Positions 1,818-64,000 of a stretch of 64,000 nucleotides of DNA are shown here, piece by piece. Position numbers and translations under genes: made by a program. Position 1 is the first letter of the stretch, and every line of letters begins with the position of its first letter. The DNA comes from Bilabrum cf. latius. Its lineage: Eukaryota. The stretch spans positions 62,001 through 126,000 of the forward strand of contig OZ237748.1 of NCBI GenBank assembly GCA_965178125.1, given 5' to 3'. The notes beneath the pieces are model-generated. The model had not been told where the DNA came from. It made no database searches and was given only the letters and a program-made list of their open reading frames with translations.

Positions 1818-3050
1818 ATGCCAACGCTTCGGGAGGAAACCATTAAAGAATTTGGAGACGATGCTACGAAAGACCTGTTCGGTCTGCTCGGATGCACTGC
1901 CAAGAGCTCGCCAGCCGAACTACGACGCGGTTATCTGCGCTGCTCGCTGCGATACCATCCCGACAAGGGCGGAGATCCAAACAAATTTCGGGTAGTCAGC
2001 GAAGTATACAAGTTGTTCTAGGACGTAGACCGCCGAGCAGCATACGTGGAAGATGGAGACATCGTAGGGGCGGGTGAGGCTGGCGGCGATGCAGCGGACG
2101 CGGAGTGGGTGGCGTACTGGCGGCGCATCTTCCCCGAGGTGACTGTGGCTGGCATTGCGGCCGACAGGGTGGCATACGTGGGCAGCGAGGACGAGCGCCG
2201 AGACGTCCTCCGCGAGTATTCGCACCCCACGGTGAAGGGCAGCCTCAGGAAGCTGCTGGAGCGGGTGCCGCACACGGACGCCCGTCACTCGGCCAAGCGG
2301 ATCGCCGTGCTGGTGAACGCGTTGATCGGGGAGGGGCTGCTGGAGGCCAGCGGGGATTTTGCGGAGGGGGGTCGCTGGGCCGGCGCATCGTCGTTGAGTG
2401 AGAAGGAGAAGCAGCAGGTGGAGGGCGATCTGGCCGCCGCGGCGCTCGGGGATGCGGCCGCGGGGGTGGAGGGGGGAGCGGAGGCGGGGGAGGCAGCAGA
2501 GGCACTGAAGGCGTGGGAGGAGAGGGAGCGAGAAAGGGAAGATGATGAAGATGAAGATGGTGATGGTGATGCTGGGGCGGGCAAGGGCTAGTCCAAGCGC
2601 AAGAGCAATGGCAAGGGCAAGGGCAAGGGGAGGGGCGGATTTGGCAGGGACGGAGCCACTGTGCTGGCCCTGCCATCCTCTGCCCCTGCTTTGTCTGGCT
2701 CCTCCTCATCTGCCTCGGCTTCTGGAGCGAAAGCAAGCAAGGGCAAGAAGGGTAAGCGGGTGGCGGGAGGGGCGGGGAGGGCGGGCGACGGGGCCCAGCC
2801 GAGCAAGCGGAGGAGGAGGGAGGCGGGGGCGGGGGCTGGGGCTGGTCAAAGTGGCAGCGATGGTGATGGCGGTGGTATTGGAGCTAGTGTGGGTGGGATG
2901 GATGACCTTGCAGCCCTGATCAGGGGCAGGCAGCAGGCCAGGATGGGCGGGCTCATCGACCGGCTGGAGGCCATGGCAAGTCGAGAGAAGGGGGGCAAGG
3001 CCGGAGACAAGAGCAAGGGAAAAGGTAGGGGAAGGAAGAAGCGGGGGTGA
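1818..3050 (+). CDS. DNAJC9: DnaJ/Hsp40 co-chaperone, DNAJC9-like
   Basis: J-domain with YHPDK, then WVAYWRRIF..YVGSEDERRDV and a C-terminal DLAALIRGRQQARMGGLIDRLEA, both resembling DNAJC9. ORFs 1818..2021, 2046..2591 and 2661..3050 share one frame, joined through TAG 2019 and 2589. Ends TGA. Confidence 0.85.
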
Positions 3051-3151
3051 ATGAGGCTGTGAATCTCTCTTCCGAACCTGGTGGTTCCCTGTAGCATCTA
3101 CGAACGTTCGCTGAATGCCAACGGATTTCACAACTGTTTAGCGTAATTTCA

Positions 3152-4693
3152 ATGGCAGACAAAACAGCTGAATCAAAAACCATGGATATTATGGGTGGTC
3201 ATGATCCAGAGCTTGGACTGCCCCCGCAAAGAGTGGTTCGCCGATCGGTTGCGGCCCAGGCGGCCGGTGCAGAGCTAGCTGGCCTTGCTCCTGCGACTAG
3301 CTCGCAGAGATTAGCAAAGCTGATGGACGGATTTGGTAAATTCGAGGGGAGCATGCGTGGTGGTGCGAGGGTGAGTCTTCCAATTTGCAACGACTTGCCC
3401 CTGGTCCTGGTAGAATGCGATACATTGCATACAGTTCGTCCGGCACGGTCCCTGCGTTCAGATCATGCCGCAATCGTTTCCATGTACACATAATAACTGA
3501 CGCAGCAACGCCGCGAAAAGGAAGAGCGCAGGCTAGCGGAGCTCCGGGAGAGAGCATCAGCCGCTGAAGCCGCCGTGGCCGCCGAATCGGGCAAGCGGCA
3601 GGAACAGGCCCGTGCCCTGCGCGCTTGGGCCGGCAAGGAAATCGCTGCGGTCGCAACCACCGCCAAGGAGGCGCTGCGGCTCCGCGCGGCAGAGACGGAC
3701 AAGCGGATCGACGCCCTGCACGCGCGCGTGGACGGTCTTGAGGCCCAGTTCAAAGAGGACAAGGCAGAGGTGCTGGCCGAGGTGAGGCGCAGAAACGAGG
3801 AATTGCTGCGCGCACTTAGCGATTTCCAGGCCCTGTTTGAGGCGGAGAAGAGGGAGAGGAGGAGCCGGGAAGCTGCCCTGGAGACGAGGATCGCCGCCGC
3901 CGAGCAGGAGACTGCCGATGCCCTGGTGGCGGAGAGGACGGCCAGGGAACAGTCGGTGATGCAGCTGAGGGAGCGGATCGCGGCGAGTTCATCGGCCAGG
4001 GAGAGGGCAGACACGAGGCTGAGGACGCTCCTCTCTGCGGAGACGTCCTCGCTGCGGACGGCGCTGGGCAAGGAGGCAGCGGTGAGGGCGGCTGAGGACG
4101 ATCAGCTGGCCGGTGCGCTGGCGAGGTATGCCTCCAGGCTACAGGCCTCTCTGCACGTGATCAACAGCGGGGATGCGGAGCTGGTGGGGGCGGCGGAGCG
4201 GCAGCGGAGGGTGGAGGAGGAGGGTGATTTGGCGGAGCAAGAGGCGGCGGGGGCGGAGATGCGGGCTGGTGCAGGGGCTGGGGCTGGGGCTGGGGCTGGT
4301 CGGAGCGGCCGCGCGGGGGATGGTGCGGGTGGTGGTGCTGGTGCAGGTGCAGGTACTAGTGTTGGTGTGCTGCGTACCCCTCGGGATGAGTACGATGAGG
4401 AGGAGGAGAGGGCGAGGGCTGCTGAGGACCGGCTGGGGGAGAGTGGGGGAACACGGCCTGGCAGGGGAAGAGGTAGGGGCGGGGGCGGGGGCAGGGGATC
4501 TAGAGTGGGCTAGCAACGTGCTGGAAGGACAGGGGCGGGGGGGAGGAGTGCGCGCGGGGGTGATGCGGGGGCGGGGACGGGGGCTGGTCGAGGAGATGCA
4601 GGGAGAATACGAGGAGGAAAGGGTGTTGGAAGGGGCAGGGGCGGTGCGCGAGTGACGGGGCAGCAGCAGCGGTCGGCAAGGGGTCGGTCGTGA
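3152..4693 (+). CDS. SF-assemblin/beta-giardin family striated-fibre protein; intron 3371..3505
   Basis: Phase-0 intron GTGAGT...CTGACGCAG gives FGKFEGSMRGGAR|QRREKEERRL. Coiled coil ends with EDDQLAGALARYASRLQASLHVINS, typical of SF-assemblin. TAG 4511 reads through to TGA 4691-4693. The start may be 3152 or 3182. Confidence 0.75.
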
Positions 4694-4768
4694 GCTGCAT
4701 TGGTCGACCATGGATGTCAAATGCGAGCGAAAATCCGTGATTGTTCTATCTGCTATCGATGGGGTCTC

Positions 4769-5710
4769 TCATTTGCCTTCTGCTGCTGCAGCCCCCCCCG
4801 AAGCGGCGCCAGAACCAGATCCACCGCCGCTGCCCTTCCCCTCCCCCTCCTCTTCGTCTCCCGCTGCCCCACCCTGCTGCTCCACCGCCTGAATCAGAGC
4901 AGCGAACTGCTCCGGAGTCATCATCACAGGCATGCCCCCCGCCCCACTTCCATCCTCGTCCTCTTCCTCGTCGTCTGCTAATGGCACCCGCTCGGGCAAA
5001 TCCCTCTTCTCACCATCCAGCGCGCTCGATTTGCCCTCTTCCTCTCTTTCCCCACTTGCGCCCACCTTGCGTCCGTACCACAGCTCCTGCAGCGCATGCG
5101 CGGCCTCCCCCGCCCCCGCCGCTCCTTCATCACCCTCGTCCTCCTCCTGCCACCGCGCCTGCAGTGGAACCAGACCGGCCTCGTTCGGCCTGCCGCCGTC
5201 CGCCCCCGCGAGGAGCAGGGATCGCACGCAGGCAGCACTGGCGCACACGTGTAACGCCGTGTCTCCATCGTCGTCTCCAGTGTCCGGATCTGTGCCTGCG
5301 CCGCTCTCCCGCCGGCGCTCGCAGGCTGTGATCAGCACTGAATCGGTCGTGTCTAGCTTGTCCCCTTCTACCTCGGCCCCGTCACCAGACGCAGCCTTCG
5401 GCTCTGTAATTGATTCAGCTTGTGGTTGCCATGCCAGCAATACCCTCAGAGCGTCGTCCTGAGCCCAGCTAGCGGCGGCGTGCAGCGGAGTGTACCCCGT
5501 TCCAGAATCATCAGCGGCCGTAGGCGAAACACCGTTGCGCAACCAGTACAGTACAGTTTCTACATCTCCATCTGCTGCTGCCGTCCATATGTTATCTTTA
5601 GCGTCCGCTGCCGATGCTCCGGAGCCCGCGGCAGCTGCATCTTCTCCGGCAGCCGCTTGCAAGTGCTCCTCCACAGCCTGCTCGGCTGCGCCAAAGTCAA
5701 AACCAGCCAT
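4769..5710 (-). CDS. Ankyrin-repeat protein
   Basis: Ankyrin motifs NIWTAAADGD, GYTPLHAAASW, GDTALHVC and NEAGLVPL. ATG to TGA, 313 aa. Confidence 0.85.
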   Translation of the reverse strand: MAGFDFGAAEQAVEEHLQAAAGEDAAAAGSGASAADAKDNIWTAAADGDVETVLYWLRNGVSPTAADDSGTGYTPLHAAASWAQDDALRVLLAWQPQAESITEPKAASGDGAEVEGDKLDTTDSVLITACERRRESGAGTDPDTGDDDGDTALHVCASAACVRSLLLAGADGGRPNEAGLVPLQARWQEEDEGDEGAAGAGEAAHALQELWYGRKVGASGEREEEGKSSALDGEKRDLPERVPLADDEEEDEDGSGAGGMPVMMTPEQFAALIQAVEQQGGAAGDEEEGEGKGSGGGSGSGAASGGAAAAEGK

Positions 5711-5912: not shown

Positions 5913-7199
5913 TCACTGCTACCCACCCGTCACACGCAGCTGCCTCACCTCGGCAAGCCGCAAGTACCTGTGGTACAGCAGAGGGTGCGCCTGGCTCAGC
6001 GCGCCGGGCTGCTGGGCCGAGGCCGCCACCAGAGCGCCTGCGCCCCCCTCCACCAGAGCAAGGGGCATCGTGGCCGAGGCATAGCTTACCAGCGCGATGG
6101 CAAGCAGACTCACCACAGACCCACGAGCCTGGGCGTCAAGAAACAGGCCGCTGCCAAGAGCCGCAGCTCCTGCCGCCGCCCATCCCGCGAACCCCAGCAG
6201 CCTGGGGGCGCAATCGTCACCCGCCGCCGCCACCGCCCCGCTCCTCTGCAGCGCCGCCCACGTCCCCTCCGCGGCCCGCACCCACGGCACACCGGTTGCA
6301 ACCGCCGCGCCCCACCCCAGCTGATGCCCCCTCCGCAGCACCGCCAGCGCCAGCCCGCGCACCCACAGGCAGCCGGTCCCCAGCCAGGACAGCGGGCCTG
6401 CACCGATGCACCCGCACAGGCCGCCGCTACCACCACCACCACCCCCGCCTCCCCGGGGCGTGCCTGCACTTGAGGGTCGCATGACCCCACCACCACCCCC
6501 CTGACCCTGACCCTGACCCTGTCCGCTCCCGAATACGTATTCCGGATCGTCCCACCCCATCTCCCCCGACCTCAGGCCCCCCGCACCCAGGGCGCGGCCC
6601 GCCTCCGCCCCCGCCTCCGCCGCGGCCCACGCCGGCGGTCCAACAAGCCCGAAGAGCCCAGCCGCCGCGGCGCTCCCCAGCGAGGGGCCCACGGCCTGTC
6701 CCACGATCGAGGCCACGTCCCGGTGCCCGATGGCCTGCTGCGCGCCCAGGGCCCGTGCCTCATCGATCGGAGCAGCAGACCGCAGGGACACGATCCGGTC
6801 CGCTGGGGTGCGGGGAGGGACGGCACCAGCACTAGCACCAGCGCCAGCGCCAGCGCCAGCGCCAGCGCCAGCGCCAGGCAGCGAGGGCGGCTGCACCGCT
6901 GAGCTCGTGCTCGAGCCTGCCCGGCGCTGCTCCCGGGATGCTGCTCCTGGCTCCGCCTCGCTGTCGCTCTCGCTGGCCATCAGCGCCGACCCGTGCCCCT
7001 CCCCGCCATCACTCGTCACACCGCCATCACTCGTCACACCCCCGTCGAGATCGCTGTCGTCGCCACCCCCCCTCGTCCTCGACTCCTCCCTCCCCGCCAT
7101 CATCAGGCCAAACTCCTCCTCCAGCGCAGCATCTAGAGCCCCATCCTCCCCATCCACATCCACGGTCCCATGATTCCCACGGCCACCTGCAGCGCCAAC

Positions 7200-7230
<31 letters not shown>

Positions 7231-8339
7231 CTGGCAGCTGCACCAGACCCTCCCACTGCAGCAAATACCGGCTTGCCGCCGTCCACGCCATGCCAGTTGC
7301 TACCGCCAGCCGACGCCAACGCACCATCGCCGGGCAAGGCACCCTGTGGACCCAATCTGCCACCTCCCAGCCCCTCCGCGCCCTCCAGCCTAAAGCCCCC
7401 CCCCCCATCCGCCCACTCCCCGGGGCCAGTCCCCGCCCCAGCCAGCGCAAGCCGCCGCGCCCCCGCCCCCGCCGCTGCCATGCCCAGCACGCTGCCCGCG
7501 GCCGCCCCCGCCCACCGCAGCACCCCCATCAGCAGCACCACGTTCAAGCCCCTCGCCATCGGGGTGAGACCCCCCGCCTCCAGAACATGAGCTAAGGCCA
7601 TCGACCACACCGCGACCACGACGCACCAGCACCCGCACACCCCCAGCGCCAGCCATATCAGCGGCCGGTGGCTCCCCGTGGACAGGGGATCTGCCGCCGC
7701 CCCCAGTGACAGCGCAGCAGCCGCCCGCCGGTCCCTTGCCCTGATCGCCCACAGGGCGTCACCCGCGATGATGACGAGGACGACCGAGGCCAGGAGCACG
7801 CGAGCCTGGGCGAGGAGCAGCAGGATCGCCACGGCGGCGAGAAGGGCGCCAGCAGCGAGCTGCAAGAAACCGAGCAAGAGGCCCCGGTGCGCCTGGGGGA
7901 GCCGGGCGAGCGCCGCAGCCACTCCCAGCCCGAACGTGGCCGCAAGTGGCGCGCTAGCCTGGAGCGTCGCGCGGAGTGTGTACCCCGAGTGGTCTGACAG
8001 CCAGGGCCTGCGGTGGCTCGGGTGGTCTTCCTCAGCGGGCTCTCCGCTGCCGTCGTCGTTCGTGCCTGCATCCCCTCCACCGGGATCCTGAGGCTGCCGG
8101 GGCTGTATACCGAGCTTGGTGATGCCGGCAAATGCTACCAACGCAATGCAGAATAAAAGTGATGCCAGGTAGGGAGTGTCCTGCGGATTGGAGTTGGCGA
8201 AAGGTCCAAGCAACGTCCAACGAATACGAGCAAAGAGCAAACTCCAGTCAGCGCTTCAGTTCGTCACTAGGCTGCTCACAATCCAAGACGGCACTATTCG
8301 AATTGACGACTCCTACGCTCTACTCTACCCGTTCCTCAT
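5913..8339 (-). CDS. Choline transporter-like (CTL/SLC44-type) multi-pass membrane protein; intron 8181..8279
   Basis: Multiple TM segments and CTL-like motifs GPSLGSAAAAGL and GVPWVRAAEGTWAAL. Exon 1 (8339..8280, two TAGs) is spliced via GTGAGC...CCGCAG to DTPYLASLLF. Ends TAG-CAG-TGA. Confidence 0.65.
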
Positions 8340-8495: not shown

Positions 8496-11400
8496 ATGGC
8501 CGCATCCGAGAAGGTGCGCCTCAACGTGCAGATCAAGGGAAGGGATAGCACACGAACTCGAGTAGTGGCCAGGGTTGACGATGACTGGGAGGATGTGCTG
8601 GCGAAGATTGGGCAAAAGTTGCGCGTGCGAGTTCTGCGAGTGAGATCAATTTTATAAAGTTTCGGCTCAGCTTCGACCGTTTGGGGCTCGGTGGCCAGTC
8701 GAAACTCTTATACATGTTGCAAACTTCACGAGAACGGTTGCTCGCCAAGGCAGCCGTACCACGATTTTTATACCCATGGGGTCATCATAACTTGCCATCA
8801 TTACACGTTTTGTATTCGATGTATTGCCTGCTGCTGTGGCCGTGTGTTTAACCTGCAACACGGGAGGCATGGAGGCAGCGCTAGGTGTCGAAACATTTGC
8901 GTCCCTGTAAGGGGCTGCACGGTTGATGTGGGTGCAACTACTTCGGCATAGTTGCTATTATTGTCTGGATCCGCATTGTTGTTCTATTCTGGGTCATGTT
9001 ACCCCAAACGGATCGGATGAATCCCTGTTGCTTCACGCTGGATTTGTCCAGTCGCTCCCTCACCCAAGCCAAGCCCAGGTGTATTGCCGCTTCTCAAATC
9101 ATTGTCTCGGTCGATTCTGTGTTTTGATTGTTTGCCCGCTAGCAGGTATTGGCCCCGAATGGTGCCCGCGTGGACGACTTGGAGGAGGTGGAGGCGGGCG
9201 AGTTGCTCAGCGCGGTGACCGAGCAAACCGAGCGCGAGGACATGGCAACAGACGAGACCTATGCCAGGGGCTTGGCAGAGTAGAGTACCATGGGCGTAGG
9301 GAAGGAGGATCCCGGCGGATCGGGCGGGGCTGCTGCCCAGGAGCCCATGGGGGTTGGGGTGGGGGGGGCTGTCCCACCCACGGGGGCGTACAGCAGCGGG
9401 GGGGGAAGAATCCGATCGGTGGAATCTGCCCCGGTGCGAGGCCAGGCAGCGGAACCACTGCGCGGCGCCTCGGTGAGCCGCACGCAGTCGGGCAGCGGCG
9501 CCGACCTGGACCTGGGGCGAGGTGAGGTGGGCATCGCTGGGTCTGGAAGCCGGAGGGGCAGCAGGCGCACTCGCGGGAGCATGGGCGGTGGGAGCGGGGC
9601 AGGGGCGGACACGCGTTCGGCCGAGGCACAAGGCGCCACGTCGGCTGGGGAACACGGCGAAGAGAGAGCTGCTGATACGTGGGCGGCGGTGGAGAAGCAG
9701 GCAGAGCAGGCGCAGGCAGCGCAGCGACCCTCCGGATTTGCGGGCATCCTCGGCGCGCTGAATCCCTTCGGGTATTCCGGGTCAGCCGCGGTGAGGGGTG
9801 ATCAGTCCTGGGGAACAGCGAAGGACGCCCGGGGGCTGCCTCCCGGGAAGCAGACGCTGGCGGAGCGGGACTCGGAATCGGAAAGCGGGGAGGCGGACGA
9901 GGTCTCCAGCGGCGGGTACAGGGGCGAGAGCGAGAGCCCGGCGGGCGTCCTCGGTGCCGGTGCCGGTGCCGGTGCGGCGGACGGGTCCTCCAGGGGCAGT
10001 CCCCCGGCCTACGGGGAGCACTTGGTGTCTGGGTCTATGTCTGGGGCTGGGGCTGGGTCAGCTGGGTACGGCGGGGGTGCCGCCAGCAGCGGTGCCGGGG
10101 GTGTAGCCGGTCTTGGCGCGGGTGATGTGGAGGATGCAGGAGAGGAGGTGGGGGGGGATTTCCCCTCGGGGTCACCTGGTGAATAGGGGGCGTCGTCCTC
10201 GCCAGCGGGGGCGCACTCGTCATCCTCTCTGTCCCCGTCCACCCCGTACGAGAGTGCGTACCCGCTGATGGACATGTACGCGAAAGCAGCCGCCATCGTT
10301 GAACTGCAGAAGGTGGGGCCAGCGAGAGCGGACGATTTCCAGGTCACACGAGTGCTGGGCGGCGGCTAGAACGGGCTGGTGGTGGCCTGCACGTGCTCGA
10401 GGAGCCCCGACAAGACCAAGGAGTACGCCATGAAGGTGGTCTTCAACTTCGGGCTGGGGACCAACCAGGCGAGGGGAGAGTACGAGAGGGAGCACGACAT
10501 CATATCCGGCCTCATGCCGCACCCGAACCTCGTGCGGTTCTGGTCCCAGACCCTGGACCCCATCCCGGAGGCCATCGCAAGCATCCTGCCAGATGCGGCA
10601 CAGGCGTCGTACGTGCACAACGGGGAAGTAAGGCGCCGCAAGACTCAGTTCGTGATCCTGGACTACCACCCATTTTCCCTTGACCAGGTGCTCTAGGCCA
10701 TGCCCAGGCCGCTGCCAGTGGACCGTGTGCTGCGGTGGGCGGCTGACCTGATCAGGGGACTGCTACACCTGCGGGCCGGCGGGGTGTCGCATCTGGACCT
10801 CAAGCTGGACAACGCGCTCATCGCCAAAGACGGCAGACTGGTGCTGTGCGACTTCGGGACAGCGAACCGACTGGACCTGCCATTGCTAGAGGCCGAGTTC
10901 ACACACGGCATGCCGACGGGGGGCAACCCGGCGCACTCCGCGCCTGAGGTCTGGAACGCTGTCTCTCGGCTGCACAAGCACAACGGGCTGCAGCTGGCCA
11001 AACAGGCGTGGACGGTCCACTACGCACCCACTGAGGGCATGAGCAACGCGGAGCTGGCCGAGTCGGGCGGCGTGGTGGCACCTGCGCCCTCCATGGCAAA
11101 GGCAGAGACACAGGGGAGGGTAAGCTTCCGGGCCGCGGACGCGTTCTCAGCCGGCATCATGCTACACGAGATGTTCACCGGCGGGGATGCACCTCTTCCG
11201 GACTACCCCAACGGGGCCAAATCCGGGGCCGCAGCGGGCTACATCGCTATAGACCCATCCGAAGTGGCGCCGCTGCCTGGGCACGTGCCCTCCACGGCAG
11301 CCTCGCTGGTCAAGGCCCTCCTTAGGCCCGACCCCCGGGCCAGACCCCCCCTGCGATCGGCGCTGCAGGTGCTGGAGACCGCCACTGCAGATGCAGTGCA

Positions 11401-14400: not shown

Positions 14401-14683
14401 GAGCGACCTGGACGAGGCGGGGGCGCGCTGCCCCGACGACCGAGGATGCGTGGTGTTCTACCTCAACGGCAGGCGGCTGGGTGCGCAGGACCAGACCCAG
14501 GCCTTCGATGGCCTCTACGGACAGGGCCTGTGCCTGGTCCCCGCGCTGTGCATGGGTACCACGGCGGGTGGGGCCCCGGGGCAGGCGCAGCTGTCCCCCT
14601 TCCATCCACCGGACCATCCCACGGCGAACGGCGGCGACAGGGCGATGGAGGGCGGGCCAGCGACCGGTGGGGCCGACGCGTGA
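8496..14683 (+). CDS. PINK1-like Ser/Thr kinase + ubiquitin-like domain + 4 SPRY/B30.2 domains; probable intron 8625..9145
   Basis: One frame from 9146 to TGA 14681 with TAG at 9281, 10184, 10367, 10694, 11783 and 12056. Kinase motifs: LGGG*NGLV, YAMK, PHPNLV, HLDLKLDN, DFG, GGNPAHSAPEV, ADAFSAG. UBL at about 11897-12157. Four repeats of NLGA..SWAYSKTGK...GD.I...D...G.L.F..NG (SPRY). Exon 1 structure is inferred. Confidence 0.8.
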
Positions 14684-14719
14684 TAGAGCCAGCGACCGGT
14701 GGGGCCGACGCGTGATAGA
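14656..14719 (+). repeat. 32-bp tandem duplication spanning the kinase/SPRY stop codon
   Basis: GCCAGCGACCGGTGGGGCCGACGCGTGATAGA occurs twice, exactly. Confidence 0.9.
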
Positions 14720-17700: not shown

Positions 17701-18174
17701 CACTTGATTTCAGTTGCTAGGTTTCGTTGACCACACAACTCTTACCGTTTTCTATCTTTCAAAATGTCGCATGGTAGATATCGTGTTTCTCGCGCCGCCA
17801 AGGCATCGAGGCCTGAAAACGCCGTTCCTGCTCGTAGTCCTTTTGCACCCAGCATGCGGCGTCGAGCCTGGCTCAAGATCGCCTGCCGTGTCAAGAAATG
17901 ATTCATCGACTACTGCTGAACTCATGGTTGTTCGTTGATCCGGGATATGCTCGCAATCGACGGGTGCCGTTTTATTCCGTAGAGGATGTGAACACTTCCA
18001 CAGGAATACTCCTTTTCGAGGTTCGAGTGTTCTTGCGAACGAACATGCAACGAAGGTAATGTGAAGGTTCGTCGCGTCGCAAAACCAATCTCGAAATGAC
18101 TATGCTTCTCTCATAGAACACCAAATCAGAATACTTGGTTTCTAAATTGATATGCACCATGCCATTGGCGCCGG

Positions 18175-21516: not shown

Positions 21517-21795
21517 ATTGGGCTAGAAAATGCTTGAGTCGAGCACGACGGAGCTGCGGAACCAGGTTGTGGCGCCGCGCTTGGTGGACTGCCGCGTAAT
21601 TTGACAAATCGTAACTTATAGCCAATACTAGCCAATTATTGCTGATTCTGATAACGTATTCGTATTAATTGTGTAATATACTATTGAATCACCGTATTTG
21701 TAGCGTGTGAACATATTGAAATAAGTCAGGCGAGGTGTTGATCGCTTGCTACCGGCTGGTTTGAGCTCTTACCAGCCCATTGTTGATCTCTGACC

Positions 21796-49638: not shown

Positions 49639-49926
49639 GATCGAAGTATCGCTGGGGGTCAATGGCATTTTGACTATCCGGATCCAGTAGAATCTAATTA
49701 ATCGCATCCGATGATAAGGTTATTAAGCAGGGATACAGGGTACGTCAGGCACACCACCGTGACAAAGATTCTGAGTCGGTCAGCATTAACCTTTTTAATA
49801 TACGGTAGATCCTGATTCTATACACAAGGTTGTAAAAATCCGCAACCGTTTGTTCTGTGCATTCTGGATTAACGGAGCTAACACGGATGCATGGGCGCAG
49901 TGGGTTTTCGAGACCGGATCCCCGAC

Positions 49927-51858: not shown

Positions 51859-52237
51859 TTTGATGCAAGTATGTGCTGTAGGACGTGAACAAGCGAACAT
51901 ATTACTGAGGTTCATCTTCGAAGTTGGATCGTCATTCGTTCGTGATCACTGATCAGGTGATTCGGTACAAGCAGACCATTCCATTCCATTCATGAGGATA
52001 CTTCGTTACAAGCAAAGCAGTGTGTATCCAAGCCGCAGAATGTGGAAGGGGTCGCGAAACCACCCGGCCAAAGCGCGCCCGATTCACGTTACTCTGCCAA
52101 GAGAAGACCACGACCACTGGCAGGCAAACACCACCGGCAAGGCCTCCAACCGACAGCATCGGCGACGCGTCAGCGAGGAGCGAGAAAGATACCTTACACG
52201 TATACCAGACACATCATCTCGCAGGGCCAGACGAGGC

Positions 52238-54862
52238 TCAGTGCGCGGCGGCAGCGGCCACCACCACCAGGAGCAGAGCGCCGAGCGATGCCACGGAAGA
52301 GGCACCTGCAGAGGCCCCGTCGTCGTCGAAGAACGTGTCGGGGAAATCGTCCCCGTCCGTGCCAGACGAGGCAGTCCCCCCCGCGGGCCGGGTGGGATCG
52401 TCCAGCGCCTGGTCCTTGTTGGCGTCCAGGTAACCGGAAGAAGACCGCATGTCGAGTGTGCCGTCCTGCGCCATGGTGCCGATCTGGGAAGCAGCGGCGG
52501 AGGAGGCGGCGTCCGTCTCCAGCCTCAGGCTCACGGTGAACGTCGCCGTGGTGCCAGAGGTGGTCACGTCGGACACGCTGCACTGGTCCTCTCGGGCGCC
52601 CACCTGGCGGACGACGTCCCTGCACACCCGGGTCTTGAGAGCCTCCTCGTTGGTCCCTGCCACGAAGCCGGACTTGATGTTGGTGAGGCGGATCTTCGCC
52701 GTGGCGGGGTTGGCCGCGGCGCAGGTGGCCGGGAAATCAGAGGCTTCCAGCCCGCTGCAGATGCCCATCACGCGGGTCTTGATGGCGGACGCGCGGGGGT
52801 TGAAGTCGTTGTTGCGGCGCGCGCGCCCGCTGGTTCCCATGATGGCCAGCTCGTAGAGGGCACCATCGGCGCAGCACTCTGCCTCGGCCATGGCCGCCTC
52901 GATGGCCATGGAGCAGTTGGACGAGCAGTTGACCGAGCTAGCCTGCAGCCCGAAATCGAAGATGGGCAGGTCTTGGCCGTGGGGCACGTTCCTTCCCGTG
53001 ATCTTGCACGCGTCGTACACGTCGTCCATCGCGGAGCCCATCCGCCCGATGCAGTACTCTGTACCGACGCGCCCGCAGCCGTACTGGAGCCTGGATTTGT
53101 CCTATTCGTTCGTCCCGAACTGCTCCCCCCCGATGCTGATCACTGCCCTGCCGCATGGGCTGCAGTACCCTGCCATCTCGGCGTCGGTGGGGATGTCCTC
53201 GTCGTCGTCGTCCTCGTCGTCGTCGCCGCCTTCCTGCTGGTCGTCCCCTCCGCTCTCCCCCTCGTCATCATCGTCACCACCGAAGAGGCCCTCATCGGCA
53301 AGCTCAGGCAGGCAGTACTCTCCTCCCGCCCTGAGGCAGACGAGGTCGAAGGACTGCTGGATCTGGTCCGTGATGAGGCCCCCCTCGTCGTCGTCAAAGC
53401 TGGTGTCGTCGTCCCCATCATCTCCATCGTCACCGTCGTCGCCGTCATCCATGGCGGGCAGGTTGACGAGGAGGCCAAAGAGGCGGGAGATGCTGCGGGT
53501 CATCTTGCGATTGCAGCTCTGGTCCCCGCCAGAGCAAAGGGTGTTCACGTTGGTGGTGACGGCCTGCGTGTCGGTGGGACCCTCTCCTCCGAGCGTCTCG
53601 AAGGCAGCCTCCATCGCCTCTGCACAGTACTCGCCGTTCGAGGCAGTCAGGCACTGGCTGCGGTTCTAATAAATACACAAATAAATAGATATTCAATTGG
53701 ATTGAGTCGGAACAGTAGCATGGCTGGTGCGACTTAAATTGCGACCGAGTGAGCAACTCGCTGCCAAAAAGCGAGACAAGCCCCGCTGGCCCATACGGGA
53801 CCTTGCCGTCGGGGAAAAGGCTAAATATCACACACAAGTAACACAAACGAAGTAACATTAGCTCAAATTGGTCTCACAGGTCGATCGACACGGCGTACAG
53901 TGCTACGATCCCGCACACTCCCTGCGACGCTTGCTCGGGGGAGATCTGATCCTGGGCTTCCCGAAGCTTGCGGGCGCACGTTGATGGGCACACAGAATCG
54001 TAATCGAAGTCGTCACCATCGGCGTCGTCGCCCTCGGAGGGCTGCGTCTGCAACATGCGCCTGTTGCCATCGTCGCCGTCGTCGCCGCCGGTGCCAGGAA
54101 GCACTCCGTTGCAGTCGTTGAATGCATCAGCAATAATGTTGCAGCATGCAAGGTTGGGATTGGCATCGCAAATCTAGCTAGGGTCGCCCTGAAGCATGCG
54201 AGCCATGGCGGCCGTGGGAAGAGACGCGCGCCCGGCCAGGTGAGCACCGTATCCGAGCTTGCCATCCATCTGCGGGGAGTTCACGCAAGGATCGAACACA
54301 TTAGGTAGACAAAATGGCTCTAGGATGCATTGGACGCGCGACGCATGCTACAGAACTAGCCCAGCGAGAGCACCACCTGAGGTTTCTGCGGGTAGCTCGG
54401 ATTGTCGCCGACGCCAAACAGTGCGACCCGCGCACGTTCGTCAAGCTTGAGGAGGTGAAGCGGCACAACAAGCAAACAAAATCATTTAATTTTAACTAGT
54501 TTGGCCTATTCACCTACTGCAAGCATGCAAGCTGGCTAAATAAATGCAAGGCACGCCAGAATAGCACCTGTTCTGGCGCTCACACAAGCATCCCAATAGT
54601 TCGAGATAATGCCAAACCTCGCGAACGCACGCCAGCGGGAGCTCAATCAATACATGATACAATCCATCAGTACTCGATTGATTCGTGACAAACGAAAGCC
54701 GCGCGGTACGATCGCGAGAATCCAAGCCTGGTGCATCCTCACCTTGGACCTCAGCCGCATGGCCTGTTCGATCACCTTCGACACGCGGCCTTCGGTACTA
54801 CCCAGCTCCATTGACATGGCAAGTGCAGACACTGCAGCTATCATCGCGATGGCAGAGCGCAT
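52238..54862 (-). CDS. Secreted, probably GPI-anchored Cys-rich surface protein; introns ~54271..54742 and 53658..53877
   Basis: Signal-like MRSAIAMIAAVSALAMS. Three copies of a C-x5-7-EYC motif, acidic linkers, and a C-terminal GASAGASSVASLGALLLVVVAAAAAH before TGA. TAG at 53102 and ~54177 read through. Confidence 0.7.
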
Positions 54863-55329: not shown

Positions 55330-58300
55330 TCAGAAATCGTCGTCCTCGAACGCATCCGCGGGCACCGAAGGGAGGCCGACCCACACTCGCCCCGTCCTCC
55401 TCTGCCAGCCCCTCTCCCTCAGGGCGGTTGCAACCGCAACGCGCCAGCCCGCCGCGGGGTCCCATCGCACCCCCCTGCCGCCGGTCTGCTCGACGCCCGG
55501 CGGCCCCGCCTCACTCGTCACACCGTTGCCCTCCACCCAGCAGGGGAACACGCCCAGCTGGTACGTCCCCTTTGGGCTGACGCTCACCCCGTCGGATAAC
55601 CGGAACAAGAACCCGTGCCTGGGGCACCGGACACATGCCCCCCCCCCCCACTCCTCGATGTCACCCCCCGCCAGGTTGCCCCCCGCGTGGGGACACTTTG
55701 GCGCGCTCGCCATTGCGCGGCGCCCCTTGCGGAACACCACCACGTCAGTCCCCATGACCCGCACCCTGGTCCCGAGCTCCTCGTTCCCACCTGAACCAGC
55801 ACCAGCACCAGCACCAGCACCAGCACCTGCGGCGGATTTGGATGCACCTCCGCACGCTCCTGCCGGAATCGATCCCGCGACTCCGCGGCTGGCTCTGAAC
55901 CGACTGAACCGAGGGGTGGCGATTCCCTTGGCCGCAGCAGAGGACCGCGCCGCTGCAACGGGCCGCCCATGTTCCGCAACCGGTGCGCGGCGCCGCCTCA
56001 CGGCCCCGGTGGCCGTGAACTCGTACACGGGGGCCGGCTGCATCGCGGCATCCTTCAGGTCCTGTATGACGAGTGCGGTCGGGAAGTAGGGCACCCCGTC
56101 GGGGCCCATTGCGAACGACTCGGAGTCAGAAACGTCGGGGCCTGCTGTCCCCGACGCATCAGTCTCATCGCACTCGTCACACTCCTCCAGCCGCAGCCGT
56201 ACCCGCGGATCGCCCGAGGATGGCGACGACGAGGAAGCCGGCTGCAGCAGCACGGGCAAGGCCGAGGAGGAGGGTGATGACGAGCACGGGGCCGTGCCCT
56301 GTTTCTGGGCATCTGTGTGACGAGTGCGCCGGCGCTGGGGGCCCAGCGACCACGGGCTCTCGGTGTGACGATGATGATGGCCTGCCGCCCCTCCTGCACT
56401 CCCATTCCCCCGGCGAGGTGTGACGAGTGAGGTACCCGCCTACCTGGTACTGCCCCGCGGAGACCCCGCACTCGTCACATCGCTGCCCCCCCCTACGCTC
56501 CCTTCCCCCCCGCCAGCCCCCACACCCCCAACCCCAACCCCAGCACCCAGCCCGAGCCCCAGCCCCAGCCCCAGCCCCAGCCCCAGTCCGAGCATAGCCC
56601 CGCCCCCATCCTCTCCGCACTCATCACCTCCGCTGGCATACCCACCGGGGGCCGGCCCAGACAGCGAATCAGCCGTCTGGCCCCTGGGTCTGTGCGTGCG
56701 CAGGTCTCCGGATCCGGAGCCAGATCTCGATCTGGACCTAGCATCGGCACCGTCCCAATCCCCACCTGCTCCTCTGGCTCCACCACCGGCGTGTGTCACA
56801 CTCGTCACACCAGCTCTCGCCTCCGCGCCCCAGTCCACGCGATCCTCCCCTCCCGCGCTGCTCCACCCGTGGACCCGCCACTGCTCACTCGTCACACCGC
56901 CACCGAACCCGTCCGTGGAGCCGCTCCCCCACAGCATCCCGCTCCTCCTCGCCAGTGCCCTGACTCGCTCCTTCGCCCTCCTCCCCTCCTCAGGGGTCTG
57001 CCCCCGCCGGTGGGGACCTCGGGCACCCGGCTCCGAGTCGGTGTCGCTGTAGCCGTGATCCGATCCGTGATCCGATCCGTCCCACAGGCCCCCTTCCCCT
57101 TCCCCGCTGGATGCAGACGCCCGATGGTGTGACGAGTGCACGAAAGACGATGAGTCGTCCAGGAGAACAAGAGGCGACGGGGCCTGGCCATTGCCACCAC
57201 CTTCACCACCATCACCATCCTTGCTGCTACTGCTGGGCTCTTCACTCGTCACATCATCGCCGGCGACAGGCCCTGACTCTCCCGGTGCGTCGCTGTGCTT
57301 CCTCCGACGGGTGCCTTGGCTGCCCTCGCTGTCCGGCGAGGGCGAGTGTGACGAGTGCCAGAGCTCCCCCGCTGCCTCCGGAGGCAGAGAGCAGGGCGAC
57401 CGTGAGCCGGCGGGCGAGTGTGACGAGTGCACGGGGTCCATGGCCATCGCGGCGGCGGCTGGGGGCAGCAGCCTAGGGGCCTGCATGGAAGCGGAACCTT
57501 TCAAATGCGCGGCGTCGTTCCCGCTCAGGAACCCCACCCCGAGTCCGGCTGACACGGTGGGAGGAGGCAGTCCCAGCCCTGCTCCGATCGATCCCCGTGA
57601 GGCATGCACGCCCGCCCCTGCACTGGGCCCGGCAGCGGCAGCACCTGCTTTCGCTTCCACTCCCACCGCATCCAGTGCTGGCCCAGGCTGCAGCATTCCC
57701 GTCCCCGCCACGCCCATATCCATGCCCATATCCATGCCCATGCCCATGCCAGGGAACCGTCCCGTAACATGCCCGCCCACCGGACCCACCCATCCCCGCA
57801 CTCCAAACACGGTGGACCACGGCGAGCCCGGGCGGCGACTGTGTGACGAGTGCGCGAGCGACGGTGCACCGGTGCGTGGTCCCTGCACCTGCCCCTGCCT
57901 CCGGTGCTGTTCCCCACCGTGATCACGATCCAACGGCATGCCTCCGTCTCTATCGCCCCTTCCCTGGATCGACGAGGCAGTGCCGCCGCCTTGCGATCCC
58001 GGGGGCGATTGTGCTCCGGCGCCCGCGCCCGCATACGTCGCAGCCGGCCGCCGGCTAGTGCCCTCGGACGGGCCGCCGCTCGCCCACGACGACCCGGTAG
58101 GTTCCGCAATTGCACCGGCGCCGCGCAATCGCCGCGCCACCGCCGCTGCAGCCCTCCTCTGCCTCCGGATCGTCCTCTGGCGAGCGTCCTCACCACAGTG
58201 CGATGCACCCGCCCCTCTCGGCACACCGTGGATCGTCGTCTCTTGCCGATCTCCGTTGCTGCGCCCCTGGTGGCGGGCGCGTGACGAGCGATCGTGGTGT

Positions 58301-59388
58301 GACGAGTGGGAATCTGGTGCTCTGAGGGGCGACTGGCCGCCCACTGGCACTGCAAGCGGCGGGTACTTCCGTCCCACCCCATTCATACCGCTCCCATCTC
58401 CCTTCCGACTCGGCGGAGTGCTGCTGCTGCTGCTGCCGCTATTGCTATTGCTGCTGCCAATGCTGCTGCTGCTGCCATTGCCGCCCATGGTCCCAGACTG
58501 CTTACTGTGGGTGTCCAGAGGGACTGTTCCCTGGGGTTCTCCACTCGTCACACGAGGAGGGGTCCTGGGACTCGGAGCTGCAGCCGCACCCTGCCGCTGC
58601 GGGGACGTCTGCCGGAAGGCCGATGCCGCGCTTTGCCCCGGCACCCATCCCTGCCCCCGCCCCTGCCCCCGCCCCTGCCTCTGCCCCTGTGCCTGTGGCT
58701 ACCCCCAGCCTCCAAACCCCAGGCCTGTATCTCCCTCTTCCTCCCGATGCTGCCTACGCTGCTGCTAGTTCGCGCCCCGCTCACCCCCGCCCCCGGGTGG
58801 GGTCCTCGTCAGGGGGCTGCCAGGGGTCGGCAGCCCCCTGTTTCCCTCGGGTTTCGACTGACCTTCTTGGATAGAGGCAGAGCTGGTGGTGGCAGAACGA
58901 TGATGCCGCGGCGGCGTGACGTACCCCCTGCCGGCGCCGCTGGTTCTTGTTGTTGCTGCTGCCGCGCCCGTGCTCACTCTCGCCCGGGGAGGCGATGCTC
59001 GAGACCAGGACAGCCGCTGCTGCTCGGATGCAATCGCGAGCGGCGGGGTCGCGAAAGAAGTCTATGATTCCAAACTGTGCTAGAAATGATTCTGCCGCTC
59101 TGGTGACCACCGAATCGGTTTGGGCGCGGCCAGAGTGCCTATTGCGCTCTTGATTTGCGATGCAACCGGTAGTTGCTTGTCCGACTCTCCTTGCACAGCG
59201 CTGGTGTTTATGGCCTTACTGGCCTGCAGCACGTGGCCTTGCACTGCATTGCGTGCCGCTGCCTGTTTGGCGATCGTGCGGTCAAGTATGCTCTCGCCAG
59301 CTGTCGAGTCTGCATGCTCGGCTTGTTGAGGCTTCTCGCGAGCGCCATTCTGACAGCGATCAGGGCCGGTTCCCGATGGCGCTGCCAT
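55330..59388 (-). CDS. Large disordered protein with a C-terminal Rieske [2Fe-2S] ferredoxin domain, ~1350 aa
   Basis: CPHAGGNL...CVRCPRHGFLFRLSDG Rieske motif. ORFs 59080.., 58765.., 56440.. and 55330.. share one frame and are separated only by TAG. Ends TGA. The start (MAAPSG) is inferred. Confidence 0.7.
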
Positions 59389-61044
59389 AATAAGAAAGAA
59401 GAGATTGGCTCTCCTATGGTGCGAAGCGCGCACCACTTTAAGGTGCAGAGTCGAGGCGTGTGACGGGGAGACGGGCCACGCTTTTTTCAAAGCGCAGGTG
59501 CTCCGGGTGGATCGGCTAGGCGATACGAAATTGCGCGCCCGGGTCAATGATGATTGGTGGTGCTCGGGCCGATATTTGAGGATGTATATCAAATTGGACT
59601 ATTGCCAGTGTCTCTTGCAAAAACTTCCGAAGCAGCCGGCGCAGGCAACCCGAGCCTCCCCTTCACCGCGCCAGCGCTCTGCACCCTGCCTACAAGTCGT
59701 CGCCAACCAGATTAGAATTCTTCGATGCACCTATCCAAAGCGAGGAACTCCTCTGCGCATTTGCCCCCCAAGCTTTTCAGCGACGACACGCCCTCTCGCT
59801 TCATGCAGCGAACCTGCGCGCGGAGCTCATCCGGACAGTGCGTCTGCAACGCCCGTGCACTGCGAACGCGCGTGAGAAAATAGTCTACAACCAGTATAAG
59901 GAGGTGGAAACATGTGCAGGGCTCGACTGTCGACAGCCGCACGCAGCGCATCCAACACCAGAGCAACTGACGAACGGCCCACTCCTAGCCGCGTGAACAC
60001 AGCAGTAGCGGCTTCAACCTTACATTTTCATGGCTCGCTTCTAGAACTGCATCTGCAAGGGCTTCGAGTACGAATCCTTCAAGTGGTCCGCTCGCCCCTC
60101 CCCTGCCTGTCGCGCCCAGAACATCTCGGCGATGGCCGCCCTCCTATCGATCGCAACGTATTCCACAATGCTTCGGGCACACTCATCCGCAAGAAACCTA
60201 AGCAATGTCTTTTCCTCGCTGTCCTCCGAAGGGGTAAGGGCGCGTGATCGCCCGATGGAATTCTCGGGACCGTGCCTCCAGCTCTCTCTGGTGTTTGCCT
60301 GCTGCACAACCCACGTATCCTCCGGTCCAGGCTCGCGCAAACTCTCAGTCGGAGATTTGAAGGGCCTAGCCATCGCTTTCAAGATGCTAGAATTACTTGA
60401 TGATACCAAATACACCATCGAGCTTCGCATTTGCGCCGCGCATCTCTCAGGGGTACGTTCCGCAATCCCTTCAAAGTTCCCCTCGGGTTGTTGGAGTCTT
60501 ATGACAAACAATTGTTCATTGTCGATCCGTGGCCGCCATTTCAACAAGGGTGAGAAGCAGTGCCTGATCGAGCATTATGTTGCGAATTAATCTCGTAGAT
60601 TGTTGCGAGTACTAGTCCAAGTCAAGCCGGTCGAAGCACTGCGAATATTGCCCGCTTGTTTGAGCCCGGCTTGAAGTGATCGCTGGATTGGTTGTTCCAG
60701 CGCATGATCGACCGGTAATGCGCTGACGTTCAAGCTTACTAGAACCACCATTGATTTTTGGATTTGTGGATTGATGTGTTCCTTGGGGTGAATGGCCGAG
60801 TCACTATCCTACAGCAGATCCACGTGTGGAAGGGTACTTTGGGTTGTGTTCGTGTATTGCTGCAAGCTGCTGCTCAGTTGCATCACGTACAGCCTGCCTT
60901 CTTGCGTGTTTGGTTGAATGAATCTCATGACTCTGACGCACAGCGAGTGCTCCTTGGCAGTGCCCAGCTCTTCGCTATCTGTGTTGGCTCACCCAGCTGT
61001 GCACCTTGCCCGCATCTCGCAGACGTAGAAGGACAACCAGAGCA

Positions 61045-61283
61045 ATGTCGAACTGCTTCTTTGACATCAGCATCGGCGGAGGCCCCGCGCAGCGCATCGA
61101 GTTCGAGCTGTACGACGACAAGAACCCCAAGACCACGGCCAACTTCAGGGCGCTGTGCACGGGCGAGAAGGGCTTCGGATACAAGGGCAGCAAGTTCCAC
61201 CGCGTCATCAAGGGCTTCATGGCCCAGGGCGGAGACTTCACCAAGGGCAACGGCACCGGCGGCATGTCCATTTACGGTGAGAA
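61045..61283 (+). CDS. Cyclophilin-type peptidyl-prolyl isomerase, N-terminal half only (first exon or truncated gene)
   Basis: [64 protein letters not shown]. Similarity stops there, and I found no FxDENF or LSMANAG continuation in the window. Confidence 0.85.
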
Positions 61284-61562
61284 CATGGGGGTACGACCAG
61301 CCGATCATTGCGCCTCTGCTCGCTCTCTCGCTTTATTTATCGCTCTTTCCTGCTGCTCTTCTCTTTCAATTAATATATTAATTTTGCAGCCACGGCACTC
61401 TCGGTCCAACCCGGTTGCAGAGGATTGGGTATCCATTGTGTTTCTTATACTTAGACCAGATTATTTCAAAATACAAGCAAATTTACTCTCTCCAGATCAT
61501 GTGTGAAACTCGTAACTCAATCAAGCTGCCACCTATGCGCCTGCGAGCCCAGGGACACCTCC

Positions 61563-64000
61563 TCACCTCTGCACACCTTGAAAATGCTGCGTCCGTATGT
61601 GTCTACGCATGTTGTCCTTCGCGGCTGAGCTGTGGTTACACAGGGGGCACACGAACACGGGTCGGTCCTCACAGTGGCGCAACGCATGACTGCGTGCACC
61701 GGCCTTGCACGAACTCACATGAGGGCACACAGGACACTGGTAGGTGACCGCCCCCTCGTGCTTGATCTAATGATCGTCGCAGTGTGCGATTGCGCTCGAG
61801 AGGCTGCCAGCGAAGATCACCTTGAGGCACTCCTTGCACCTCTTCTCCCACCTTCTACCGCGTCCTCTTGTCACCTCGCCTCGCTAGGCCTACTGGAAGA
61901 GCTGCGGGTGGCACTCCTCGCAGTGGGCGCGAAGCGCCGCCAACGAATCGGACGTAGCGTTGCACTCGGCACAGGTGAGCCAGTCCCGCGTGACGAGCCC
62001 TGGACGCACCACCGGTACGACTTCCCCGAGCAGCCCCTCCATCCTCTCCACGGTCATGCCCGGCTCCGGCTCAACGAACGTGCGAATGTTCGACCTCTGC
62101 TCGCCCGACAGCTCCGAGGCCTTCTTGCGGACTATCCCTTCAATCGCTGCAGCACACTGCGCCGAGGAGCCCCGCGATGATGACTCTTGAGCGCCTGCCT
62201 CTGGTGCCGACGCGCGGCGGTGCGGGGCATCCGGGCCAGCACCAGAGATGCCCGCACCGCCCTGTCCCGCTCTGCTTCCAGGGCGCGAATCCGCTGCACT
62301 GGAAGCGGATCCGTGCGACGAGTGGTCGCTGCAGGCCGCACTGGCAGCCGATCTCGAACCCTTGACGCCCTCCTACGCAACCCCTGTGCTCGACCGAGCG
62401 GCTGCACGCGCGCTCGACCCCCTCGGCTGCGCGACGCCCTCCGGACACACGGCGTCCAGTATGCGCGTGGTCACGCTCGCGCGGAAGTCGCCCATCGACG
62501 CAGGCAGGGTCACCACCCGCGAGCCAAGCTGATCGTCCAAGTGCTTCTGCAGATGTCCAATGAGCTCGTCGGTGAGGAAGTCGGGCTGGAACGGGTGAAG
62601 CACCCTGCCAAAGTCACTCTCGCAGCCCCCCGGCGAGAAATGCACGGCAAACCTCCGCCGGAGGTCCGAGTGGCGCTTGCCCTTCTTGCTGTTGTCAATC
62701 TTCTCCCTGAACATGCGTGCCTCGTCTACAATCCTGTCCGTGTAGTACGACAGCATCACGAATGTCCTGACCATTGTTGGCACCTCGGTGCGCCCTCCTG
62801 TGGCGGGCCAGTCCTCCGATGGGCGCCCTTGCATGAATGCATCGGCAGCGCTGAATAGGGCCATGTCGTGCCCTCCCTGTTCCAACGGAATGACAATGAC
62901 GTCCTGGCTGGCGGTGTTGTACCGCATGCAGTTGGTAATCGTGTTGAAGGCGTCCTCTGCCCCGCGCACGCTAGGCAGGTACTTTTCCGCCGGGCCGAGG
63001 GTGCTCGAGATCGGCGAGCCGCCCTGCCCGGTCGGCCTGAACTCGATGCTGAACAGCTCTATTTTCTGCCTGCGGGTGCTGCCCGTATCCCTGAGGTCTC
63101 GAAGGAACTCTGCCACCTGCGGCGCGCTGTCTCGCAGCAGCACGACCCACGCCAGCTTTGGCGCCGCCTCGTTGCGCGATCTGACCGTGTCACGGTAGTG
63201 CGTCTCGGCGAATGTGTCGGCCATCCGGAACGCATCGGCGATCGCTTCCGGCTGCACGGACACTGTGAGTCCCCTGAAAGGCACCTTTGTCGGGGCGAAG
63301 AACTCGAGCGGCCAGGCTCGCACGAGCGATAGGCACTCCTTGTTCCATGCATCCGCCTGCACCGGCTCCAGTACCTCCCTCAGGTATCGCTGCAAGTCGT
63401 GCACCCGAGTCCCGGCGCGGTCATTGGCGAGTGCAAGCTCGAGCGCCCCCCAGGCACTGCTGCCGCGGAAGGTCCCGTGCAGCAGGCGCCATGCGTTGTA
63501 GGCCAGCACGGCTGCGCTGGATGCAACCCCACAACGCATGTGCCCAACGACGGTGGCGGCAATCGCAGCCATGTCGGGTGCCTCTAGCCTTGCGATGATC
63601 TGCCTTCCCTTGGCTGCGAGCCATGCCCACGTGGCTGGCGGCAGGTTGCCGATGCCCTGCTGCGCCTGCTTCTCGGATGTCCACTGCATCGAGACGAGCA
63701 CACCTGGCAGTCCATCCCGCAGGCCATTAGCCTTGCAATCGTCCCAAGTGCTGCAGAGCTCTTTCATAGCCCAAAACGTGGGATCCGAAAAGTCCCACTG
63801 CGACGAGAGTGCCACCGACTCGGTGCAATTATAGCAAAACTGCGTGACGTCCTGAAGGGTGGGAACCTCCTCGCCATCGGCCGATGCAGCATCCCTTTCG
63901 ATCTGGTTCACGATGTGCCTGGCAATGCCGTGGACCGACACGCCCCAGTGCTTGACCTCGGAGAGAAAGTCGAACACTTTCTGCCGCAGCGCTGCTCCCT
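61563..64000 (-). CDS. Large hypothetical protein with four C-terminal C2H2-type zinc fingers (5' end outside the window)
   Basis: ORF 62373..63977 continues through TAG 62373 into CAEC..RAHCEECH, CKEC..HCDDH*IKH, YQCPVC..RSHALRH and FVCPLC..RRHIRTQH. Ends TGA 61563. Confidence 0.75.

Follow-up and report, generated by a model that had tools for sequence, protein, structure and literature searches.

Probable reassignment of UAG alone to glutamine, with UGA as the main and UAA as a rare stop, in a GC-rich 64-kb window of Bilabrum cf. latius

The stretch of DNA considered here is a window of 64 kb from the genome of Bilabrum cf. latius (contig OZ237748.1 of GenBank assembly GCA_965178125.1, positions 62,001 to 126,000 of the forward strand), and by the window we mean this stretch at its full length of 64,000 nucleotides, numbered from its first letter. 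Its G+C content is 60.6%, with 60-70% in the protein-coding parts and 35-57% in the non-coding parts, and as judged by Pfam its gene content is eukaryotic and made up of nuclear families, most of the genes being single long exons. An origin from a giant virus or an organelle was set aside because of the genes with GT..AG introns and these typical nuclear families. Many of the genes contain TAG in frame and nearly all of them end in TGA, a pattern suggesting that UAG has probably become a glutamine codon by itself, with genes stopping mainly at UGA and rarely at UAA. Two data sets underlie the counts given below, namely a raw set of 16 open reading frames (ORFs) with 15,158 codons, and a conservative set of 17 gene models with 14,934 codons, in which each gene begins at its first ATG, spliced genes are represented by their exons, and the start of one gene, that of a Rieske protein, has been moved. 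All the evidence on the code comes from this one window of one genome.

When all three standard stops are applied, the longest stop-to-stop frame in the window has 875 codons, and when only TGA and TAA are applied, the maxima are 2754, 1852, 1499, 1341, 1172 and 1147 codons. Since frames of 1100-2750 codons exist only with TAG read through, TAG is a sense codon in this DNA. Reading through TAA as well extends only one of the 12 longest frames listed, from 1147 to 1255 codons. In fact the raw ORFs contain 89 TAG and no TAA, and the conservative models contain 84 TAG, no TAA and no internal TGA, along with 116 CAA and 490 CAG, so the first-pass annotation was right in noting dozens of in-frame TAGs and not a single in-frame TAA. 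The trinucleotide itself is not missing from the region, as TAA occurs 24 times in frame 2 and 42 times in frame 3 of the same genes, and 318 times in the non-coding DNA, counted on both strands of 16,348 bases whose G+C is just 51-54%. As a terminator, TAG is found at none of the 16 frame ends.

Moreover, conserved domains lie 3' of in-frame TAGs in at least six genes. In the DnaJ/DNAJC9-like gene (1818-3050, forward strand, TAG at codons 68 and 258, TGA at 3048), the Pfam DnaJ domain (residues 19-76) spans the TAG at codon 68, and the helix-turn-helix (HTH) domain of DNAJC9 follows it at residues 120-182. The gene at 9242-14683 (forward, TGA at 14681), which encodes a protein kinase with SPRY repeats (Pfam Pkinase and SPRY), has six TAGs, two of them in the kinase domain, and the SPRY repeats come after the six. 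The largest gene is a homologue of the N-acetylglucosamine (GlcNAc)-1-phosphotransferase with 2750 residues (21796-30048, forward, 17 TAGs, TGA at 30046; Pfam Stealth CR1-CR4 and LNR), where Stealth CR3, CR4 and the C-terminal membrane anchor are encoded behind 15-17 TAGs. The lipoyl synthase gene (49927-51915, reverse strand, Pfam LIAS_N, TGA at 49927) carries two TAGs in its N-terminal extension, with the catalytic core downstream of both; in the gene of a zinc-finger protein (61563-63998, reverse, four TAGs, TGA at 61563), whose 5' end lies beyond the window, a zinc finger follows the TAG at codon 744; and the Cx9C domain of a small gene described below is located 3' of one TAG. UAG is thus translated as a sense codon.

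All the 14 gene ends that the first-pass annotation had taken for TGA are indeed TGA codons closing long reading frames, at 3048, 4691, 14681, 30046, 34388, 39818 and 47986 on the forward strand and at 4769, 5913, 18175, 49927, 52238, 55330 and 61563 on the reverse strand. Its statement that TGA ends every traced gene therefore stands for the genes it traced, but not for the window as a whole, where an overlooked gene at 59712-60373 apparently ends in TAA. The complete tally is then 14 sure TGA, one doubtful TGA at 43517 which may not be a true gene end, one TAA and no TAG. It should be noted that the ends at 39818 and 47986 are not independent, because a recently duplicated 3' end is common to both.

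The gene ending in TAA was found in a screen of all the 78 TAA-terminated frames of at least 80 codons in the window. The other frames lie on the wrong strand or in the wrong frame of larger genes, fall in introns, or have codon scores of non-coding DNA; for example, the TAA-ending frames on the forward strand over 52238-53680 have held-out codon scores of 0.01 and -0.011, versus 0.186 for the reverse strand. The frame 60023-60574 on the reverse strand is protein-like, and a search of 1.84 billion representative proteins with it gave two matches, P0253 and P0254. The former is the organism's own fragment, a 99% identical piece of 110 residues (60044-60373, reverse), which a standard-code gene caller has cut at the TAG; a single residue, R in place of Q, sets it apart from the window, and therefore a second allele or strain is present in the public data. 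The latter is a distant homologue of 194 residues with a library-wide E = 4e-4. Its residues 2-116 match the first frame with a pairwise E = 4e-13, and its last 51 residues (144-194) match a second frame 164 bases downstream with E = 2e-8, both proteins ending at the last residue of this match. The second frame has a twin Cx9C pattern, and so has P0254.

Only two donor-acceptor pairs keep the frame of this gene open. The donor at 60047 was rejected since it would delete part of the homologous first exon, while the donor AAT/GTAAGG at 60023 (the slash marks the exon border) with the acceptor ...TTCGCAG/ at 59860 leaves the homologous exon complete and is the better splice signal of the two, and both sites resemble the splice sites of the lipoyl synthase gene. 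The predicted twin-Cx9C (CHCH-like) gene (59712-60373, reverse) accordingly has 165 codons in two exons, with exon 1 at 60373-60024, the intron at 60023-59860 and exon 2 at 59859-59715. In this model the ATG is located at the homologue's start and the TAA at 59714-59712, the window's sole candidate for a TAA stop, at the homologue's end. As for the TAA at 60020-60022, which ends the first frame, it belongs to the GTAAGG donor. If the TAA at 59712-59714 were read as sense, 41 more residues would be added up to the next in-frame TGA, a tail to which nothing in P0254 corresponds and whose codon score, 0.001, lies at the 10th percentile of coding windows. As the TAA lies exactly where the homologue ends, the simplest reading of the sequence is that it terminates the gene, and UAA most likely still works as a stop, at one of the 15-16 gene ends. 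The first-pass annotation had left it between a rarely used stop and an avoided codon, and this one TAA-ended gene with its one homologue favours the rare stop.

The absence of in-frame TAA is real and far beyond chance. High GC content alone, which the first-pass annotation had considered as a possible cause, is ruled out, for CAA makes up 19% of CAA plus CAG and yet none of the 84 TAR codons (TAA or TAG) is TAA. Set against the CAA:CAG ratio, about 16 TAA would be expected among them where none is seen (P = 1.8e-8), which bears out the uncoupling of the two codons; in the conservative models TAA makes up at most 3.5% of the TAR codons at the upper 95% bound. More generally, the A-ending share of purine-ending codon pairs varies from 0.15 to 0.28 (CAA 0.20, GAA 0.26, AAA 0.28, TTA 0.15), and over this range the probability of finding no TAA among the 89 lies between 5e-7 and 1.6e-14. 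As for the gene ends, TGA and TAA both end in A, and so a preference for GC at third positions does not account for the use of one rather than the other. In the non-coding DNA the ratio TAA/(TAA+TGA) is 0.33-0.39, with which the lack of TAA at the 14 ends has P = 0.0036. TAA is therefore scarce in both roles, as a sense codon and as a stop.

As to the amino acid, UAG is likely to stand for glutamine, as had been proposed in the first-pass annotation, and the proposal is supported by Q at a few informative sites. The clearest of these is codon 1054 of the phosphotransferase gene (24955-24957, forward), which lies among residues of Stealth CR2 conserved from man to this organism, a region 58-68% identical to the enzymes of animals, Achlya and Cafeteria. 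Of 11 homologous proteins, 9 have Q in its column and the other two have H, with Q in the human enzyme (7s05) and V in the Drosophila chain. In the Cx9C gene the in-frame TAG at 60041-60043 (reverse) is aligned with a Q of P0254, and in a family of four gene copies described below, one TAG site has Q in a paralogue. Moreover, TAG, which is one C-to-T transition away from CAG, stands within a run of CAG codons (QQQQQ-TAG-KQ) and closes a Gln-Gly repeat, and glutamine is enriched within two residues of TAG by 2.2-fold, as compared with 2.25-fold around ordinary Gln codons.

Taken together, we regard it as probable, though well short of certain, that UAG stands for glutamine and that genes end mainly at UGA and rarely at UAA. 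To judge from published cases, such a code could arise if a tRNA-Gln with anticodon CUA pairs with UAG and not with UAA, and if eRF1 has lost its recognition of UAG and still recognises UGA and UAA. By the accounts in PMC5304391 and PMC11687900, a tRNA-Gln(CUA) is able to read UAG and not UAA, whereby UAG can change its meaning alone, and the recognition of UAG by eRF1 must be lost.

Several points weigh against this reading. The glutamine assignment rests on the three informative sites just given, and at other places the TAG faces different residues, namely N in Sis1 at the DnaJ site, T and S in PINK1 at the two kinase sites, and, at a site in CR3, seven kinds of residue in 11 proteins; variable columns, however, are expected to look so. 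The TAA stop rests on one small gene and one homologue, and the C-terminus of P0254 was set by a gene caller on a 1,976-base contig whose own code may differ. The model of the Cx9C gene is about 27 residues shorter than P0254 in the middle, and the Pfam matches of its exon 2 are below the cut-off (CX9C E = 0.011, Cmc1 E = 0.05). Furthermore, 14-15 TGA versus one TAA would be a strong skew if UAA were a normal stop, although a TAA share of up to about 30% among the gene ends is compatible with 1/16. Neither a tRNA gene within the 64 kb nor an eRF1 among the Pfam matches of the window's ORFs was found. Finally, UAA is the predominant or preferred stop in other lineages where UAG alone has changed, that is in Iotanema spirale, the rhizarian exLh and the phyllopharyngean ciliates, as far as described in PMC5304391 and PMC11687900.

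The same skew gives rise to a different explanation, in which UAA is nearly extinct in both roles because eRF1 has lost most of its affinity to UAR, as it has in table 6 organisms, and no tRNA exists for UAA, so that the organism would be at an intermediate stage toward table 6. Selection would have purged TAA from the frames and from most of the gene ends, and the TAA of the Cx9C gene would be a leftover weak stop, backed up by the TGA 41 codons later. This accords with the counts of TAA at 0 of 84 TAR sense codons and at 1 of 15-16 gene ends, in a window whose non-coding DNA has one TAA per two TGA and where third-position preference offers no explanation. However, the sample comprises just those 15-16 gene ends, two of which share their duplicated 3' end, and the single TAA stands exactly at the homologue's C-terminus as a working stop would; we hold this explanation to be unlikely, but not negligible. 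The ordinary table 6 code, in which UAA and UAG both mean Gln, would need UAA to be used far less than UAG and the Cx9C protein to carry a 41-residue tail. The 14 sure TGA ends are just what table 6 organisms have, this is the commonest nuclear code change with at least 13 independent cases (as counted in PMC5304391), and a TAA share under 3.5% would be compatible with the data. Yet none of the 16 TAA expected at CAA usage is seen, and the one candidate for an in-frame TAA lies where the homologue ends and is followed by sequence that scores as non-coding. Table 6 would thus require an at least sevenfold under-use of TAA relative to CAA, and in addition a chance TAA at the homologue's C-terminus, and with TAA almost unused it seems an unlikely code for this organism, slightly more so than a nearly extinct UAA.

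It is also conceivable that TAG is sense but not Gln (for example Glu, Tyr, Leu or Lys), or that it is ambiguous, being sense inside genes and stop near their ends. Codes with UAG as Leu and UAG as Ser do exist, by the descriptions in PMC5304391 and PMC11687900, and here the sites for Gln are only three, with His in 2 of 11 homologues at the conserved column. On the other hand, all three are Q, and the CAG-repeat and Gln-Gly-repeat contexts, one transition from CAG, agree with them. A position-dependent code could be seen in the TAG at 5919-5921 (reverse), two codons before the TGA of the gene at 5913-7601 (TAG CAG TGA), which is compatible with being read as well as with ending the protein, so that this single gene is ambiguous. 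But no gene end in the window is TAG, and as the frames are also free of internal TGA and TAA, an ambiguous stop/sense code of the Condylostoma or karyorelict type was rejected. A TAG with another or a mixed meaning is therefore very improbable.

The remaining genes of the window are as follows. The last exon of an SF-assemblin gene (3575-4693, forward, Pfam E = 4.9e-21) has a TAG at codon 313 and the TGA at 4691. Its match begins at profile position 51, and a frame in 3150-3390 carries a plausible N-terminal piece, from which an intron is probably located near 3390-3575; the TAA closing the upstream frame falls in this presumed intron. The TAG-free part of SF-assemblin as a query gave weak and mixed matches, and no match in a search of a large database. 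On the reverse strand there follow an ankyrin-repeat gene (4769-5710, Pfam Ank families, TGA at 4769), the above gene at 5913-7601, which encodes a Gly/Ala-rich membrane-like protein and has its TGA at 5913, and a long gene with a weak Tudor match and 13 TAGs (18175-21516, TGA at 18175). The phosphotransferase is about twice as long as the animal enzyme, with long low-complexity inserts between the Stealth regions, which include a 27-base repeat in eight copies (28335-28551).

Downstream of it on the forward strand lies the four-copy family, which has no Pfam match. Its first two members are at 30884-34390 (nine TAGs, TGA at 34388) and 35834-39820 (eight TAGs, TGA at 39818), the third, with the N-terminal two thirds only, at 40919-43519 (seven TAGs, TGA at 43517), and the fourth, a C-terminal part, at 46792-47988 (three TAGs, TGA at 47986). 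The third and the fourth align to complementary parts of the family and together look like one member. The 3.3 kb between them (43520-46790) have 35-46% GC and no convincing ORFs, and may be explained by a long intron, by an insertion or by an AT-rich island. A satellite of 59 bases in 29 copies, 98% alike, occupies 47928-49641 and begins in the last 17 codons of the fourth member, whose TGA is formed at the junction of satellite units 1 and 2, as 59 is not divisible by 3; a version of 2.8 copies is found at 39760-39923, at the end of the second member. When the C-terminal domain of this family was looked for in metagenome contigs, 302 protein-pattern matches were obtained with no relative among them, and an exact 52-base pattern from the satellite had no match in such contigs.

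The lipoyl synthase gene is predicted to have three exons (51915-51193, 50903-50594 and 50381-49927, reverse, joined in frame) with two GT..AG introns of 289 and 212 bases, and its last exon is 60-71% identical alike to fungi, ochrophytes, red algae and Cafeteria. Beyond it on the same strand are a gene assigned by its codon score, whose product is Cys- and acid-rich with a hydrophobic C-terminus (52238-53614, one TAG, TGA at 52238), and the gene of a long low-complexity protein with a C-terminal Rieske domain (Pfam, 55330-59388, five TAGs, TGA at 55330), the start of which was moved to the ATG at 59388, since farther upstream the ORF runs into the Cx9C gene. A Pfam Pro_isomerase match at 61045-61284 on the forward strand (E = 4.9e-18) covers positions 2-70 of the 159 in the profile and represents the N-terminal half of a cyclophilin. 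Its C-terminal half was not found by a motif search in the six frames of the window, and the piece is either a mere fragment or belongs to a gene whose very long intron reaches beyond the window. This fragment was the sole match when Pfam was applied to 89 + 77 leftover ORFs. No Rfam family matched within the window, the Cx9C homologue had no match in a search of the PDB, and a blastn comparison of the window with itself gave duplicated segments without any in-frame TAG.

The same DNA is present in seven public sequencing runs from three studies under three organism names, with no RNA run listed, and given these names and studies the organism seems to travel in mixed samples or cultures. Over 14500-34400 (19.9 kb), four of the runs showed no other letters in the long pieces listed; there are two C>T differences, each in a single contig of low depth, and the joints fall in low-complexity repeats. 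The read depth over this segment is low in two of the three studies. Within it, the intergenic stretch 15012-15914 corresponds to a 980-base contig of one run with a word depth of 50.7, versus 3-8 for the neighbouring contigs. A repeated element or an abundant RNA might account for this depth, and none of the ORFs matched by Pfam is located in this stretch.

To our knowledge, UAA and UAG almost always change their meaning together, and only in a handful of nuclear lineages have they been uncoupled, all of them with UAA as the dominant stop and with genomes that are AT-rich or of moderate GC. A code with UAG alone as Gln is rare but already known, and what sets the present case apart is its unusual preference for UGA as stop, the GC content and the lineage. 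By the lipoyl synthase, Rieske and Cx9C genes the organism is aerobic, it has ordinary spliceosomal introns and long genes, and by these features it is neither a ciliate nor a fornicate; the closest named matches of its phosphotransferase are from the oomycete Achlya, from animals and from Cafeteria. A literature search of limited coverage revealed no report of a UAG-only Gln code in a GC-rich non-ciliate eukaryote. If the code is as we suggest, it would be an independent case of UAG as Gln with the opposite stop preference in a GC-rich, aerobic and intron-bearing eukaryote, and this opposite preference would help to separate tRNA wobble from eRF1 specificity as the cause of the coupling of UAA and UAG. 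A stronger claim would be that a lineage outside the ciliates, fornicates, rhizarians and green algae, GC-rich and with UGA as its main stop, has reassigned UAG alone and driven UAA out of both roles. This we consider doubtful, but if true, it would present a living intermediate in a stepwise change of the standard code into table 6, and would mean that UAA can cease to be a stop before a tRNA captures it. For annotation the consequence is more immediate, as gene callers will mis-annotate this genome, the standard code breaking most long genes at TAG and table 6 reading through TAA stops.

Table 6 codes are found in ciliates, dasycladaceans, hexamitins, oxymonads and Amoeboaphelidium, with UGA as the sole stop, and the pattern of a UAG-only Gln code is that of NCBI table 15. 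For comparison, the fornicate Iotanema spirale reads UAG as Gln and keeps UAA and UGA as stops (Panek et al. 2017, PMC5304391); 204 in-frame UAG are reported there in 126 genes, and of 119 scored transcripts 104 end in UAA and 15 in UGA. Among the ciliates described by McGowan et al. (2024, PMC11687900), Hartmannula sinica, Trochilia petrani and Protocruzia tuzeti use UAG as Gln, and phyllopharyngean metagenome-assembled genomes from TARA use it as Leu; the UAG-only ciliates are stated to have UAA as the preferred and UGA as the least used stop, at a GC content of 27-54%. In rhizarian exLh UAG is Leu and in Scotinosphaera it is Ser, UAA being kept as a stop in both according to these two papers, and in Amoeboaphelidium protococcarum TAG and TAA are both noted to mean Gln (PMC6299283, citing Karpov 2013).

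Our window is like I. spirale in that UAG alone is reassigned, apparently to Gln, and ends no gene, while UAA is out of the frames and ends at least one gene. However, the stops here are one TAA versus 14-15 TGA, where I. spirale has mainly UAA, and unlike that anaerobe this genome has 61% GC, a Rieske protein, a twin-Cx9C protein and a lipoyl synthase with an N-terminal extension, three genes which place it outside the Iotanema lineage. With the UAG-only ciliates it shares the difference in meaning between UAG and UAA and the wide use of UAG as sense, but here UGA dominates, the GT..AG introns are 164-289 bases long, genes reach up to 8 kb, and the GC content is 61%. As in table 6, UAG appears to be Gln and UGA ends nearly all genes, although about 16 in-frame TAA would then be expected where there are none, and one gene apparently ends in TAA. 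Lastly, only UAG is reassigned and UAA apparently kept as a stop just as in exLh and Scotinosphaera, yet the informative sites give Gln here instead of Leu or Ser.

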